Virus record (IMG/VR): IMGVR_UViG_2695420732_000023
Length of the DNA stretch: 39,472 nt
Reading direction: 5' to 3' (one strand)
From: a virus
Lineage: Duplodnaviria; Heunggongvirae; Uroviricota; Caudoviricetes
The notes under the pieces are model-generated. The model saw nothing but the letters and a program-made list of their open reading frames with translations, was not told the origin of the DNA and made no database searches. The position numbers and the translations under genes are program-made. This document shows positions 13,543-38,579 of this stretch, one piece after another. Every line of letters starts with the position of its first letter. The first letter of the stretch is position 1.

Positions 13543-13567
13543 CCCCGTAAACTTTATGTTTACGGGG
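13543..13567. terminator. bidirectional rho-independent terminator between convergent Q and TIR-like gene
   Basis: perfect 10-bp stem CCCCGTAAAC/GTTTACGGGG with 5-nt loop, A-run upstream and T-run downstream. Confidence 0.6.
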
Positions 13568-13572
13568 GAAGG

Positions 13573-14388
13573 TTATTTCTTTTTTTTATTACTTTCAGAT
13601 AATCGTCGGTTTAATGTGTATTTTATTTGGTTCCTAATCATTTTTTCAGGAATGTCATATTTGTCTAAGAATGATATTATTTCATCCTCGTCAAGCAATC
13701 CATTCTTTATAATTTCATCTATCTGTTTTTGTAGATACCAAACATCCTTCTGTTCTACAGGAGTTAAATTCATATGGCTATTTATGGAGTTGATAGTAGC
13801 ATCACGTTCAAGAACTCTAATCCTTTGATTTAATGAACGAGTGTTTTGTAATATTTCAGATAAAAGATCTTGTTCAGTACGTGGTTTTACTTCTTCAGTT
13901 GGAGGGTATTGATCTAAAGCTCGTTTAAAATTTTTTTCAAATTGCTCCCAGTATGTATTAAAAACTTGCTTTAGAATACGGTCATCTAAAGATTTATCGA
14001 CAAGACAATTGTTTATTGTCCTTACTAATTCCCAAACACTCTCTTTATTTGGCGTTGTGTGATTGAATTGAGCAAGTGGATCTTTTAAATCTTCTGGTTT
14101 TAAGTCAATCAAGAATGTACAAACTTTATTTGTTGAAAGTCCTTTTGCTAGTGCTCCTGTTTCAAACAAAATCCATGGTTTATTTTTATTTTCTTGTGTC
14201 AAACATACAATGCCGACAGATACATCTTTTAATTTATCATTAATTTCAGAGAACCATATAGCGCCACGATCAATATCTCTGGTTGAAATCCATGGCTGCG
14301 AAGCTTGGATAACACACTTCAGCCAGTCGCTAATAAGTTCTGCAACAGCTTGACTTCTTTGCCCAGACCAACTTATGAACACTTTCAT
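13573..14388 (-). CDS. TIR-like domain protein (N-terminal TIR-like fold, C-terminal domain of unknown function); candidate antiphage defence moron
   Basis: start MKVFISWSGQRSQAVAELISDWL (FISWSG motif typical of bacterial TIR-like domains), later WILFETGAL with candidate catalytic Glu; visibly AT-rich versus flanks; opposite strand to all neighbouring late genes; GGAG RBS. Confidence 0.65.
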   Translation of the reverse strand: MKVFISWSGQRSQAVAELISDWLKCVIQASQPWISTRDIDRGAIWFSEINDKLKDVSVGIVCLTQENKNKPWILFETGALAKGLSTNKVCTFLIDLKPEDLKDPLAQFNHTTPNKESVWELVRTINNCLVDKSLDDRILKQVFNTYWEQFEKNFKRALDQYPPTEEVKPRTEQDLLSEILQNTRSLNQRIRVLERDATINSINSHMNLTPVEQKDVWYLQKQIDEIIKNGLLDEDEIISFLDKYDIPEKMIRNQIKYTLNRRLSESNKKKK

Positions 14389-15981: not shown

Positions 15982-16275
15982 TTATTGTGAGCAATACACA
16001 CGTGCTTCCAGCGGAGTATAAATGCCTAAAGTAATAAAACCGAGCAATCCATTTACGAATGTTTGCTGGGTTTCTGTTTTAACCACATTTTCTGCGCCGC
16101 CACAAATTTTGGCTGCATCAACAGTTTTCTCCTGTCCAATTCCCGAAACGAAGAAATGATGGGTGATGGTTTCCTTTGGTGTTACTGCTGTCGGTTTGTT
16201 TCCAACAGTAAACGTCTGTTGAGCACATCCTGTAATAAGCATTGCCAGAGCGGCAGAAAACAACATTTTTTTCAT
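15982..16275 (-). CDS. bor: Bor outer-membrane lipoprotein (serum resistance)
   Basis: 97-aa from MKKMLFSAALAMLITGCAQQ (lipobox); matches lambda Bor by recall; track ORF trimmed to ATG at 16275 with AGGA RBS. Confidence 0.88.
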   Translation of the reverse strand: MKKMLFSAALAMLITGCAQQTFTVGNKPTAVTPKETITHHFFVSGIGQEKTVDAAKICGGAENVVKTETQQTFVNGLLGFITLGIYTPLEARVYCSQ

Positions 16276-33550: not shown

Positions 33551-34125
33551 CAAACGATGATTATATCCGTCTGTTGTCGGCACTGTTGCCGCCCGGTCCG
33601 GCGTGGTCAGTCAGCGATCCGGCGATTGCCGGTGCGGCACCGTCATTAACCCGCGTTCATCAGCGTGCGGATGCCCTGATGCGGGAGCTGGATCCGCGCA
33701 CCACCACTGAACTGATAAACCGCTGGGAGCGTCTGTGCGGTCTGCCGGATGAATGTATTCCCGCAGGGACACAAACCCTTCGCCAGCGTCAGCAACGGCT
33801 GGATGCGAAGGTTAATCTGGCGGGCGGCATCAATGAGGATTTTTACCTTGCACAGCTTGCTGCCCTGGGCAGACCAGACGCCACTATCACGCGATACGAT
33901 AAAAGCACGTTCACCTGCTCATCGGCCTGTACTGACGCAGTGAATGCGCCGGAATGGCGGTATTACTGGCAGGTCAACATGCCAGCCGCCACCAACACCA
34001 CCTGGATGACATGTGGCGATCCCTGTGATTCCGCACTGCGTATCTGGGGCGACACCGTTGTCGAGTGCGTGCTTAACAAACTCTGCCCTTCGCATACCTA
34101 CGTAATTTTTAAATATCTGGAGTAA
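33541..34125 (+). CDS. tail protein Mu gp48-like (DUF2313/YmfQ-like)
   Basis: 194-aa; immediately precedes tail fibre gene. Confidence 0.7.
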
Positions 34126-34128
34126 TCC

Positions 34129-34887
34129 ATGCATCGTATAGACACGAAAACCGCGCAGAAGGATAAGTTCGGCGCGGGTAAGAACGGTTTTACCCGTGGT
34201 AACCCCCAAACCGGCACACCTGCCACCGATCTGGATGATGACTACTTTGACATGTTGCAGGAAGAACTTTGTAGCGTGGTGGAGGCCTCCGGTGCCAGCC
34301 TGGAGAAAGGGCGGCATGACCAGCTGCTTACCGCACTTCGTGCGCTGCTGTTAAGCCGCAAGAATCCGTTTGGCGATATCAAATCGGATGGCACAGTGCA
34401 AACGGCTCTCGAAAACCTTGGTTTGGGAGAAGGTGCTCCAGCTATTGGCGTTCCGTTCTTCTGGCCGTCCGCTGCAATGCCAAATACTGTAATCGACAGC
34501 TGGTCCAGTATGGTGTTTCTGAAGTTCAACGGAGCCACATTCTCAGCGTCGAATTATCCAAAACTCGCTCTGGTGTTTCCTGCATTAACACTGCCTGAAG
34601 CACGCGGTGAATTTATTCGTATCTGGGATGATGGCCGTGGCGTTGACAGTGGCCGTGCATTACTTTCCGCACAATCAGACGATTTCAAAACGCACGAGCA
34701 TAAAATTTTAGGGCTAAATGGAAGTGGCAGTAATGTAGTGTTTGGCACCGTTTCGAATGCTTCTCCATTATATACCAGCGGCGTTAGTCAGCCGGCTGGA
34801 AGTGCTTTGCCCGCTTTTCAAAACCCAGGCGGTACTGAAACGCGTCCCCGTAACATCGCATTCAACTTTTTAGTAAGGGCTAAATAA
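34129..34887 (+). CDS. tail fibre protein (constant N-terminal part to ~34428 fused to currently expressed variable part Sv)
   Basis: 252-aa; hix/gix-like crossover site inside gene at 34416-34442; followed by tail fibre assembly gene. Confidence 0.8.
34416..34442. repeat. invertase crossover site (hix/gix-like) within tail fibre gene
   Basis: CTCTCGAAAACCTTGGTTTGGGAGAAG resembles hixL TTCTTGAAAACCAAGGTTTTTGATAA; inverted partner at 36385-36411. Confidence 0.55.
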
Positions 34888-35480
34888 TGAAACCTGTTTT
34901 TGATGAAAATGGACTGGCTACAGTGCCGGGTGATATGCGTTGTTTTTATTATGATGCAGTAACGTATGAATATACGGGCTGGTCTGATGAATATATTAAT
35001 ACTGGCGTAAGTATGCCCGCCTGTTCCACTGGTATTGACCCTGGCGAAAACATTCCGGGAAAAGTGGCAGTATTTACGGGTAAGGGATGGAGCCATGAAG
35101 AAGACCATCGCAATGAGACTGTTTACTCAATCGAAAATGGCGCAGCTGTTACAGTGGATTATATCGGTGCCATCAAAAACGGTTATGTCACGCTTTCACC
35201 GTTAACGCCATATGATAAATGGGATGGTGAGAAATGGGTGACAGATACTGAGGCACAACACGGTGCCGCAGTAGAAGCGGCAGAAGCACAGCGCCAGTCA
35301 CTGATTGATGCTGCAATGGCTTCCATCAGCCTGATTCAGCTGAAATTACAGGCCGGGCGGAAGCTGACGCAGGCAGAAACCACCCGGCTTAACGCCGTGC
35401 TTGATTACATTGACGCGGTGACGGCAACAGATACGAGCACCGCGCCGGATGTCATCTGGCCTGAACTGCCGGAGGCGTAG
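34887..35480 (+). CDS. tail fibre assembly chaperone (Tfa)
   Basis: 197-aa; start overlaps fibre stop; typical Tfa size and position. Confidence 0.8.
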   Translation: MKPVFDENGLATVPGDMRCFYYDAVTYEYTGWSDEYINTGVSMPACSTGIDPGENIPGKVAVFTGKGWSHEEDHRNETVYSIENGAAVTVDYIGAIKNGYVTLSPLTPYDKWDGEKWVTDTEAQHGAAVEAAEAQRQSLIDAAMASISLIQLKLQAGRKLTQAETTRLNAVLDYIDAVTATDTSTAPDVIWPELPEA

Positions 35481-35895
35481 GCCATTCAATATCTGGCGCA
35501 CCGGAAGTATCGACCAGCTCCAGTACGTCCAGATAATCCAGCCACAAATTATATTGCGCCAGTTCCTCACCTTTCAGGCGACCAATCGCTGCTTTACCAG
35601 GCCATTGCTTACTGTATATGTATTCGTTGACCTGATTAATCAATTGCTGCTTTTCCAGTTCGGCTGCGGCAATTTGTTCCTCATGAGTTGGCGGTGGAAT
35701 TTCCCCCCAGGTGGGAAGGCCATCATCACCCGCGATGCGTACTTTCCCTTGCAACGTTCTGTCTTCAATAAATTCCAGGTAAGTGTCATATGTCACTTCG
35801 ACAATATCAGCAAGTTCCCATCCGGCCTGTTCATATTTCGCCACATCATTTTTAGCGAAAAAACTATTATTTGAGGCGCTATAAACCATTTCCAT
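35452..35895 (-). CDS. alternative tail fibre assembly chaperone (Tfa') in inverted orientation
   Basis: 147-aa; C-terminal region resembles Tfa C-terminus (APDIEWPTPP versus APDVIWPELP in Tfa); convergent with Tfa. Confidence 0.75.
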   Translation of the reverse strand: MEMVYSASNNSFFAKNDVAKYEQAGWELADIVEVTYDTYLEFIEDRTLQGKVRIAGDDGLPTWGEIPPPTHEEQIAAAELEKQQLINQVNEYIYSKQWPGKAAIGRLKGEELAQYNLWLDYLDVLELVDTSGAPDIEWPTPPAVQAR

Positions 35896-35896
35896 A

Positions 35897-36399
35897 TTAA
35901 TACCCTACTGCAATATAAAAAACTGATTCACCAGCGTCCTGAGAACCTACCCCCGGAACGCCAGACCAGGCTTTGTTAATGAATGCAAAACTGGTATTAC
36001 TCAGATCAGATGCTCTGTACATCGGGCTGAACATCCAGTAGTTGGCTCCATATGTTTGTCCGAAAACAATGCCATAGCACTGATTTGTAAATGGCGTAGA
36101 AAATAATTTTCCACCAGTACCAGCGATAGTCCCGAATCGCATCTGGAACCCATTCGGGAAATTAATTCCGCCTGCCGGTGAAGACCAGTAAGACATATCA
36201 GGTATTTGCCCAGCACTATTTCCCACGTTTTTTGTTGCAACGGTTCCTAACCCAAGATTAGCTCTTGCATCAGATTTATTTGTTAACTCATAAAGATTAT
36301 TTGCCTTTTGAAGTGCTCCTGTTATGCGTAAATCATCACCAGCGGCAACGGTTCCGACTGTCGTGCCCACATCCCTTTTCGCCGCTTCTCCTAAACCAA
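35897..36399 (-). CDS. alternative tail fibre variable segment (Sv'), lacking its own start in present orientation
   Basis: minus-strand frame open from crossover site to stop at 35897; glycine-rich fibre-like sequence; would fuse to fibre constant part after inversion. Confidence 0.6.
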
Positions 36400-36411
36400 C
36401 ATTTATGAAAA
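36385..36411. repeat. invertase crossover site (inverted partner)
   Basis: reverse complement matches 34428-34442 at 14 of 15 positions (TTGGTTTAGGAGAAG versus TTGGTTTGGGAGAAG). Confidence 0.5.
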
Positions 36412-36465
36412 TGCAGAAATAACGAGCAAATGGCATCATTCCTGCTTTTGCTAGGGAGATCTACC

Positions 36466-36594
36466 ATGCTTATTGGCTATGTACGTGTGTCAACAAATGA
36501 CCAGAACACAGATCTACAACGTAATGCGCTGAACTGTGCAGGATGCGAGCTGATTTTTGAAGACAAGATAAGCGGTACAAAGTCCGAAACCTAG
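36466..36594 (+). pseudogene. pin: Pin/Gin/Hin-family serine DNA invertase, truncated after 42 codons
   Basis: MLIGYVRVSTNDQNTDLQRNALNCAGCELIFEDKISGT matches the N-terminus of Pin-family invertases by recall, then stop; a full invertase is ~190 aa. Confidence 0.8.
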
Positions 36595-36632
36595 GGCTGA
36601 CACTGCTGTTCTTGTTGCAAATTAAAGGATTT

Positions 36633-36658
36633 AATAGTGAGTAGCGGCCTTACTAATG
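36633..36658. terminator. perfect hairpin AGCGGCCTTAC-taat-GTAAGGCCGCT between pin remnant and DUF262/DUF1524 gene
   Basis: 11-bp perfect stem, 4-nt loop; lies between convergent gene ends. Confidence 0.45.
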
Positions 36659-36689
36659 TAAGGCCGCTATAATCATTTTATTAATTGCA

Positions 36690-38579
36690 TTAATCGTGTT
36701 TTGGCCATACTTTCAATGCAATTTCCCCCAACATTTTACCCCGCTCCAGGATTTCATCCTCATCCCATTTATCCTTAACTATAAGTGGAATGTTCAGTCG
36801 TAGATTGGTGTGGACGATGAGAGCATCACGTTTTTTCAGAAATACAGCATTCTGAACAGAACGGTTTACGCTAAGGTTAAGCAAAGTTAGATTTCCCAAC
36901 GTAGCTATCGCTTGTTGCCGTTTCCTTACCAGTAGCTGTTCTGGGGTAAGATCGGTTCCAGACAGAACAATTTGGTTCAATACCGTAGCATCTGAATTTG
37001 TCACCATATGACCATTTTCGAGAGGCCAACAGGAATACCAACTTTGAGGCATAAGATGATCGATATCGAGGTTAGAAAGATTTGGAACATCAGGCTTCTC
37101 TGTCTTCACTTGGCGACAAAGTTCTCTTTCAAGTTCCGTTAACATTGAGCGCATTTTCGGTGCGTCGAGCCTGCCAGGATAAAGTGGAGCATTGATGCAA
37201 GCGTTGAGAAATTCTGAGTCCCCAGGCCAACGTGAGGCTTCGCCATTTAAGCTATTGAGGATATTACGTAACTCAACACTGGAAATTTCTGTTTTAGACA
37301 AGTGCCGCAATACATTCATAAATACATTGTTGTAATTCTTTGGCGTCAGGCCACATACGGCTCTTCGTACTACGTAGGAGACAAGATCATTATACATGGC
37401 TGCTTTCTCATCATCGGCGATGTTAGCTATCGAAATGAACAAAGCAAGCGGATAAAGTGTCGTCACATCATAGGCTGCGATGCGATGTCCAAAGTGTGAG
37501 ATGGGGGTTGTGCCAAAACCACCAACCAATTCTTTATATTGTGATGCATATTGTTTGAGGCGCTTTACTTGCAGATCTGCTCGTTGTGAAGGCAAGTCCT
37601 TACTTACATAATCACGATACTCATTGTAAAGACGAGACAGATCGATTTCACGTTGCCTTTCTGATTGCAATGTTGCATGCACTAGCCACTCCATGCGTGG
37701 TTTATTAATACGACCACGACGTTGTCTTTCTGACCAGTACGTATCTTCAAAGATCTTCCACTCATTCTCATATAATTCAACAGCATTAATATTTTCATGT
37801 TCAGCGCACATAAAAATATAATTGCGAATAAGATCTGTGGCATGAAGTTCCGCACCTCTGCCATTTAATGTTTCAAAAATTATTTGAGCGTCATCTTCAG
37901 CCTCGAGAAATATGCTTACTAGTTTCAGATCCGTCAAGACAGCCTCAATTAATGCTACAGCATTTTCTCGTGGTGAGTGATTTTCTATTTTAATCCACTT
38001 TATAAAGGCTTCAGTAAAAAAACATAATGCTTCTAGTGATGGCGGGTGATTAAAATGCTTACGCAACGTACCATGCTGCGTGAAACTATCAGAGAATACA
38101 TTCCGGATATCGTCAATATTTTCAACATTAAAACTTTGAATAAAATGAGTTTGATCCCGAAAAGTTGGCCACAGTTTGAAGCGCTCTACTTCTTTATTTC
38201 GCATTGTGTCTTCGTTTGAGTTTTTCAGGCAAGACGAAATGAGAGGCTCTAAGTAGGAAAGATCTGTTGCACGTAATGCTAATCGGATGGATGCCAGAAC
38301 ATATTGAAGAGTGGTCAATCGTTGCTGACCATCAATAATATGTATGGAATCTACACCGAATAATCCTTTTTTTGGTTGAGGTTCCAGTACAACTGCACCA
38401 AGGAAATGGGGAGTTGGTTTTGTACCCGAGAGCCGGGATTGTGCTTTCTCTAGGATATCCTCCAGTAGAGCTGACCATTGGTTTCGCTGAGTCCATACAT
38501 AGGCACGTTGATAGAATGGAACACAGTATTGTCGGCGGTCTTGAAAAAGTTGTTGGACAGTTAGCGTCTCGGATTTCAT
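36690..38579 (-). CDS. fused DUF262/DUF1524 protein (GmrSD-like putative type IV modification-dependent restriction endonuclease)
   Basis: N-terminal FYQRAYVWTQRNQW and DGQQRLTTL (DUF262/ParB-like NTPase motifs), C-terminal DIDHLMPQS (DUF1524 His-Me finger-like); AT-rich; start set at ATG 38579 (MKSETLTV), alternative ATG at 38639. Confidence 0.75.
   Translation of the reverse strand: MKSETLTVQQLFQDRRQYCVPFYQRAYVWTQRNQWSALLEDILEKAQSRLSGTKPTPHFLGAVVLEPQPKKGLFGVDSIHIIDGQQRLTTLQYVLASIRLALRATDLSYLEPLISSCLKNSNEDTMRNKEVERFKLWPTFRDQTHFIQSFNVENIDDIRNVFSDSFTQHGTLRKHFNHPPSLEALCFFTEAFIKWIKIENHSPRENAVALIEAVLTDLKLVSIFLEAEDDAQIIFETLNGRGAELHATDLIRNYIFMCAEHENINAVELYENEWKIFEDTYWSERQRRGRINKPRMEWLVHATLQSERQREIDLSRLYNEYRDYVSKDLPSQRADLQVKRLKQYASQYKELVGGFGTTPISHFGHRIAAYDVTTLYPLALFISIANIADDEKAAMYNDLVSYVVRRAVCGLTPKNYNNVFMNVLRHLSKTEISSVELRNILNSLNGEASRWPGDSEFLNACINAPLYPGRLDAPKMRSMLTELERELCRQVKTEKPDVPNLSNLDIDHLMPQSWYSCWPLENGHMVTNSDATVLNQIVLSGTDLTPEQLLVRKRQQAIATLGNLTLLNLSVNRSVQNAVFLKKRDALIVHTNLRLNIPLIVKDKWDEDEILERGKMLGEIALKVWPKHD

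Follow-up and report, generated by a model that had tools for sequence, protein, structure and literature searches.

Does the loss of an invertase gene bring the host-range switch beside it to a standstill? This question is raised by a stretch of viral DNA of 39,472 nucleotides (IMG/VR record IMGVR_UViG_2695420732_000023, Caudoviricetes), referred to here as the window, in which a tail-fiber segment bounded by inverted recombination sites adjoins the truncated gene of a Pin-family serine invertase. An initial annotation, made from the letters of the sequence, had recognized the segment and concluded that the switch was frozen in one orientation unless a paralogous invertase acted in trans. With sister copies of the module present in both orientations, the word "frozen" is probably wrong, and the second half of that conclusion is favored. 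On balance, the window appears to carry a host-range switch of the P-segment type in an orphan state, dependent upon an invertase supplied in trans.

Positions 34000-37000 of the window are 100% identical to the chromosome of Escherichia coli O103 strain ML775 (NZ_CP193495.1). The window is an SfV/e14-like lambdoid prophage with a Mu-like tail, located at thrW in that strain.

The invertible segment and its truncated invertase gene

The segment is delimited by two 26-bp recombination sites in inverted orientation. The left, pixL-like site occupies 34406-34431 (CTCTCGAAAACC TT GGTTTGGGAGAA, with the core TT at 34418-34419). A hix/gix-like site had been correctly recognized here, but the coordinates given, 34416-34442, need to be moved ~10 bp to the left. 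The right, pixR-like site occupies 36386-36411 (on the + strand TTCTCCTAAACC AA CATTTATGAAAA, with the core AA at 36398-36399), and the inner arms of the two sites are identical at 14 of 15 positions, as had been claimed. This similarity also withstood comparison with shuffled sequence, since no match to the reverse-complemented arm with one mismatch or fewer appeared in any of 300 shuffles of the window. Within the window, the 16-nt arm published for e14 matches at the left and right sites only, and the same two sites are the sole matches to a degenerate 26-bp hix-like pattern, for which 0.09 were expected. A loose 12-nt pattern (AAACCNNGGTTT, with up to two mismatches) gave no excess over chance across the window and was dropped, the longer patterns being used for site specificity. 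Regarded as an anonymous inverted repeat, the pair is unremarkable and ranks fourth among the pairs in 3 kb.

In its sites, gene order and sequence, the region is a homolog of the e14 P segment of K-12, which upholds its assignment to the invertible host-range segments of the Gin/Pin type. The left site is identical to the e14 left site at 26 of 26 positions and the right site to its e14 counterpart at 24 of 26, and the distance from the center of the right site to the pin ATG, 67 bp, is equal in the two prophages. The gene order ymfQ-stfP-tfaP-tfaE-stfE-pinE-mcrA is also shared, with a type IV restriction gene following pin in both. In contrast to e14, where pinE is intact, the reading frame in the window reaches a stop after 41 Pin residues. 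Moreover, the two prophages have different alleles of the variable cassettes. In the window, a gene of the GmrSD family on the opposite strand takes the place of the defense gene mcrA, and nearly the whole prophage is present, e14 being a remnant.

The remnant, pin' (36466-36594, + strand), comprises 42 codons and a stop, as the initial annotation had stated, and is entered in RefSeq as a partial recombinase pseudogene. Its alignment with intact pinE breaks off at 36589, after ...AAAGTCCGAAA, and the DNA from 36590 onward is unrelated to pinE. Pin residues 1-41 are retained, and the match to the Pfam Resolvase profile covers positions 2-48 of the 145 positions of this catalytic domain. Judged from what its sequence encodes, the product cannot work as an invertase, because most of the catalytic domain, the oligomerization helix and the DNA-binding domain are gone.

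Two 26-bp sites with a 2-bp core, one of which is abutted by the invertase gene, are likewise found in the G/Gin system of Mu, the C/Cin system of P1 and the H/Hin system of Salmonella, and in Mu and P1 the alternative fiber ends and their chaperones also lie inside the segment. The sites of the window share 19-20 of 26 positions with hixL. The Din-family features of inverted 26-bp sites with matching cores and of in-frame alternative fiber ends with chaperones are present in the window, while a functional serine invertase next to one of the sites is not. In the Mu, P1 and Salmonella systems, by contrast, an active invertase is part of the system itself.

Exact inversions in sister copies

The truncated allele is common. 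The junction of the pin stub and the GmrSD gene was traced with a query of 502 nt that begins at the right site core, spans pin' and ends inside the GmrSD gene; out of 5426 complete E. coli genomes, 286 (~5%) contain it at a coverage of at least 80%. The module lies at thrW, adjoining paoD, in ML775, BE2-5, FG92-1, BS74R-D and IAL7255, and at ssrA in ATCC 11775, EC9682, UTI89, IHE3034, NU14, S88 and APEC O1. Several of the ssrA-type strains belong to the ST95 complex.

Both orientations of the segment are found among these copies. In UTI89-like strains, junction queries assigned 79 genomes to the orientation of ATCC 11775 and 25 to the opposite one, and all of them carry the truncated pin and the GmrSD gene. 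Over 12.5 kb, ATCC 11775 and EC9682 differ by a single-nucleotide polymorphism (SNP) and one exact inversion and are otherwise identical. The largest exactly inverted interval between them measures 1929 bp and runs from the left core TT to the right core AA.

Such inversions have occurred repeatedly. Six genomes were compared over 38.9 kb, made up of 17.5 kb upstream, the segment and 19.5 kb downstream, and only eight sites were variable, with the invertible segment 100% identical in all six. The informative SNPs pair N58 with N63, NU14 with IHE3034 and GN02100 with GN06489, and both orientations are found inside each pair, indicating that at least three independent inversions took place. A second lineage with both orientations lies at the locus of the window itself, thrW/paoD. 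When the BE2-5 allele is inverted in silico, the predicted right junction is that of FG92-1 (1100 of 1100 nt, 100%). The inner half-sites of these two strains differ at one base, which travelled with the segment, whereas the outer half-sites kept their positions; the exchange therefore lies at the core or no more than 10 bp from it. In the UTI89-like copies, the arms are perfect 15-mers. The pin'/GmrSD module is not frozen in general.

Some prophages at this locus are much reduced. In BS74R-D, IAL7255 and FG92-1 (L008, L009 and L022), large deletions or IS66 insertions removed most of the late genes. What is left in each still includes the GmrSD gene, the pin stub and all or part of the invertible segment.

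Possible sources of the recombinase and competing explanations

How might a segment be inverted that no longer encodes its invertase? The ~1.98-kb segment between the inverted 26-bp sites holds two cassettes of a fiber tip and its chaperone, Sv with Tfa and Sv' with Tfa'. According to the model favored here, a serine invertase would cut at the 2-bp cores and rotate the segment by 180 degrees, so that either tip could be placed in frame with the constant N-terminus of the fiber. The adjacent invertase gene has lost everything past codon 41, and the GmrSD gene has taken the place of the DNA downstream. The parts acting in cis survived, namely the two sites and 124 bp from the 5' end of pin, which cover a putative enhancer stretch. 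Unable to flip itself, the segment would remain a substrate for a compatible Din-family invertase in trans. Such an enzyme might come from another prophage in the same cell, as a PinE-, PinQ- or PinR-like protein, or be brought in by an infecting phage. Din-family invertases complement one another.

Inversion in trans has a direct precedent. Kirigo et al. (2025, PMC12529663) reported that the e14 P segment is inverted in trans by both PinQ and PinR, and they showed that PinQ, a protein from the Qin prophage with 38% identity to PinE, acts at the arms TTGGTTTGGGAGAAGG and CCTTCTCCCAAACCAA. The window shares the arms TTGGTTTGGGAGAAGG with that system, and inversion by an invertase from another prophage is the mechanism proposed for the orphan copies. 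The two cases are nevertheless different. A local invertase is present in the K-12 of that study, whereas the natural allele described here retains the 5' stub and its sister copies have flipped. Invertible regions without a nearby recombinase have also been noted in general (PMC9881135).

The part of pin that survives may be of consequence for this mechanism. In the Hin family, the enhancer of inversion sits in the 5' part of the invertase gene itself, and studies by Kahmann et al. and by Johnson and Simon, both of 1985, reportedly located it within the invertase gene. The first 124 bp of pin are ~94% identical to e14, and they include a stretch (36487-36550) homologous to the Fis-dependent enhancer of the Hin family, as suggested by its position and homology. 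It lies 88-152 bp from the crossover point and ends 39 bp before the break in homology; each of its ends is formed by a G-N13-C 15-mer, and ATCTA...TAATG stands in between. For comparison, wild-type Hin is inactive without the hin enhancer, a Fis-bound stretch of 65 bp that lies ~100 bp from hixL and whose two Fis sites flank the AT-rich motifs ATTTA and TAATG (PMC3798978). The pin stub may still act as an enhancer, which would be consistent with the flips in sister copies.

Candidate helpers were sought with chimeric queries, in which a piece of an invertase gene was joined to 1.5 kb of the GmrSD gene, an arrangement that ranks the genome of interest first. By blastn, the ML775 chromosome contains one extra place resembling the 3' part of pinE and one resembling pinQ. 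The search for paralogs proposed in the initial annotation was therefore productive in that candidates exist, known by their number and possibly not intact.

That these candidates may not be intact is one of several points that weigh against a switch operated in trans. At blastn sensitivity, neither pinE-3'-like nor pinQ-like DNA was found in the chromosomes of the flipped strains ATCC 11775, PMV-1, GN02100 and GN06489, and the same is true of many ssrA-type chromosomes. The cassette pair Sv/Sv' of ML775 occurs in no second complete genome in either orientation, and flipping of the window's own copy is accordingly predicted rather than observed. The right inner arm of ML775 carries a C-to-T substitution at 36392 relative to e14 and the UTI89-like copies, and the enhancer is assigned from position and homology only. 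Finally, a K-12 strain with pinE deleted has a locked P segment (PMC12529663), which indicates that native PinQ alone is not always enough.

A T at the same position as the substitution is present in a natural outer half-site, so that tolerance would be expected. The K-12 deletion may also have removed the enhancer inside pinE, a stretch that the natural truncation keeps; no enhancer is mentioned in PMC12529663. In the flipped strains without a match, the helper may reside on a replicon outside the scan, may since have been lost or may have come with a phage that was present only for a time; alternatively, it may be a recombinase whose gene has diverged too far to be picked up at the DNA level. 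Other searches for helpers were negative. No invertase was found in the first 50 kb of one GN06489 plasmid, and a PinE scan of species-representative genomes, which required exact peptide words, listed 80 loci elsewhere and none from ATCC 11775. Likewise, pinE-like DNA was not significantly in excess among genomes of the minority orientation (7/10 vs 11/29, Fisher p = 0.14, with genomes that are not independent of one another).

An alternative is that the switch is indeed frozen in ML775, locked in the Sv orientation with Sv' and Tfa' as decaying passengers. The truncation of the invertase, the single orientation in the ML775 assembly together with the absence of its cassette pair from other genomes, and the substitution in the right inner arm all speak for this possibility, as does the K-12 deletion strain, which is locked despite the presence of both pinQ and pinR (PMC12529663). 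However, at least three flips have occurred among identically truncated sister copies of one lineage, flipping is also seen in another lineage that occupies the locus of the window, Sv' and Tfa' are intact reading frames rather than decayed ones, Sv' is 99% identical to a fiber tip used elsewhere, and pinE-like and pinQ-like sequences are present elsewhere in ML775. A permanently locked segment in this strain is therefore rather unlikely, though it deserves to be taken seriously.

Two further explanations concern the sister copies and deny that an invertase acted upon the truncated allele. If the prophage or a recombinant tail module had been acquired separately from a phage pool, the orientations could have been set by relatives with an intact invertase and no flipping in place would be needed. 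The occurrence of the module at two attachment sites, thrW and ssrA, attests to its mobility, and the many flipped strains whose chromosomes lack a detectable helper would be accounted for. This scenario is nonetheless highly improbable, given that only 0-3 SNPs separate the members of a pair over ~37 kb of flanking DNA, in which host genes past ssrA are included, and that these SNPs group genomes across orientations. Furthermore, the truncation junction is identical in all copies and was not found in sequenced phage records, where the matches stop at the break and belong to genes annotated as intact invertases. Even less credible is inversion without a site-specific invertase, in which the 15-bp inverted repeats would recombine by a general or replication-associated route, and for which the perfect 15-mer arms of the UTI89-like copies and the lack of a detected helper in several genomes could be cited. 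A repeat of 15 bp is below the usual length for RecA-mediated exchange. At least three events are required among near-identical genomes, and the crossover between BE2-5 and FG92-1 maps to the core-proximal 10 bp. In addition, PinE and PinQ act on these sites experimentally (PMC12529663).

Inversion by an invertase acting in trans is thus retained as the explanation of the orphan copies. A more far-reaching version, considered quite unlikely at present, is that the stub is kept as a carrier of the enhancer, making the segment a "public" switch for any resident or invading Din-family invertase. Flips in genomes without a detectable pinE- or pinQ-like gene would then be caused by a recombinase so far not recognized as acting on these sites or by transient phages, and the switch might also have been taken over by the host, for instance to produce receptor-blocking proteins like StfE2 beside GmrSD.

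A pseudogenized invertase beside an invertible segment does not imply a dead switch. The case described here is a common natural allele, present in well-known extraintestinal pathogenic E. coli strains among others, in which the enzyme was lost, the cis elements were kept and flips have recurred. No description was found in the literature of a widespread natural allele in which pin is lost, an enhancer-bearing stub is kept and there is population evidence for repeated flipping. Prophage host-range switches and the host functions built on them may be governed by recombinases encoded elsewhere, and annotation pipelines and inverton surveys that require a recombinase nearby would miss such cases.

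Fiber cassettes, defense cargo and prophage setting

The fiber gene predicted from its open reading frame (34129-34887, + strand, 252 aa) consists of a constant N-terminal part (34129-34418) and the expressed variable C-terminal part Sv (34419-34887). The constant part is 95.5% identical to e14 ymfQ-stfP, with homology stopping at 34436, and its homology to SfV stops at 34432, at the left recombination site. The chaperone gene that pairs with Sv, Tfa, follows at 34887-35480 (+ strand, 197 aa; Pfam Caudo_TAP, E = 1.8e-27), and Tfa', which pairs with Sv', lies at 35452-35895 on the - strand (147 aa; Caudo_TAP, E = 2e-29). The two genes are convergent, as had been noted, and overlap by 29 bp. A promoter scan of the region gave results at chance level.

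The alternative C-terminal segment Sv' (35897-36398, - strand) is open for its whole length, as is Tfa'. Inversion of 34419-36398 in silico, with cuts at the central dinucleotides, yields an in-frame fiber of 263 aa, and the predicted Sc+Sv' fusion is 99% identical over its full length to a natural 263-aa E. coli protein. The initial annotation had foreseen this fusion but called the segment start-less, a description that is debatable, as the reading frame (35897-36439, - strand) runs beyond the right site to in-frame ATGs at 36439 and 36436, as stfE does in e14. Natural Sc+Sv' proteins (P0001, P0003 and P0004) were considered as evidence for inversion and rejected, because the prophages that encode them lack an invertible segment; what they confirm is the reading frame.

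Fixed-fiber relatives of this kind are found among the SfV-like prophages. The baseplate and the constant fiber part, up to 34432, are ~96% identical to those of SfV, SfI, SfII and SfIV, which share the Mu-like tail. In contrast to the window, the SfV-like prophages L006, L007 and L021, for which the full gene order was read, have one fixed fiber tip, one Tfa and no adjacent invertase, and the shorter contig L020 has the same beginning of fiber and Tfa. The fixed fiber of these relatives is an Sc+Sv' fusion with a single Tfa, and an acyltransferase gene comes next in L006 and L007. Together with the end of the SfV similarity at the left site, these relatives indicate that the GLGE joint is also a module boundary in phages that lack an invertible segment.

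On the other side of the pin remnant, the cargo junction (36590-36689) begins where the alignment to pinE breaks and includes a hairpin with a 13-bp stem (36641-36670) between pin' and the next gene. This gene (36690-38579, - strand) is predicted to encode a GmrSD-family type IV, modification-dependent restriction enzyme of 629 aa by the RefSeq start, while the longest open reading frame extends to 38639. The protein matches the PADLOC profile mREase_IV with 1434.7 bits over positions 1-629 of 629 and combines GmrSD_N (DUF262, PF03235, E = 7e-34) and GmrSD_C (DUF1524, PF07510, E = 5.9e-20) in one polypeptide. It fills the slot that is taken in e14 by mcrA, the gene of another type IV enzyme, directly after pinE. 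The end of the prophage appears to be an exchangeable defense slot, and on the simplest reading an exchange of defense cargo at this end would have removed the 3' three quarters of pin. The GmrSD gene is itself broken by IS3 in strain MS20654 and by IS1 in KTa005.

The remainder of the window conforms to a lambdoid prophage with a Mu-like tail. By the RefSeq annotation and open reading frames, proA and the tRNA-Thr gene thrW (1369-1444) are followed by a tyrosine integrase, lambdoid early and lysis genes, head genes, a Mu-like contractile tail and baseplate, the fiber region, the partial recombinase and the DUF262 gene. The integrase is thus at a tRNA site, and the baseplate genes upstream of the fiber are of the Mu gp44-48 type, with a match to Pfam Phage_Mu_Gp48. 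The closest sequenced phages are SfV, SfI, SfII and SfIV, with ~96% similarity. The attachment site is a 48-bp repeat of the 3' end of thrW (1399-1446), and its second copy lies ~2.7 kb past the end of the window, which means that the integrated element reaches beyond the window. Between the GmrSD gene and this far repeat are a DinI fragment, a umuC-like fragment, two hypothetical genes, parA and a fragment of a SRAP peptidase gene, so that the element bounded by the two repeats is composite or includes a second remnant.

The prophage looks otherwise complete, but ymfL (~7642-8198, + strand) is annotated as frameshifted in ML775, and full function may therefore be doubtful. In the RefSeq annotation, a gene for a TIR-domain protein (~13561-14388, - strand) lies antisense between the Q antiterminator and the holin and probably represents a second piece of defense cargo. 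The increased serum survival gene iss (~15982-16275, - strand), which encodes a bor-like lipoprotein, is situated downstream of neither group exclusively but between the lysis genes and the HNH and terminase genes.

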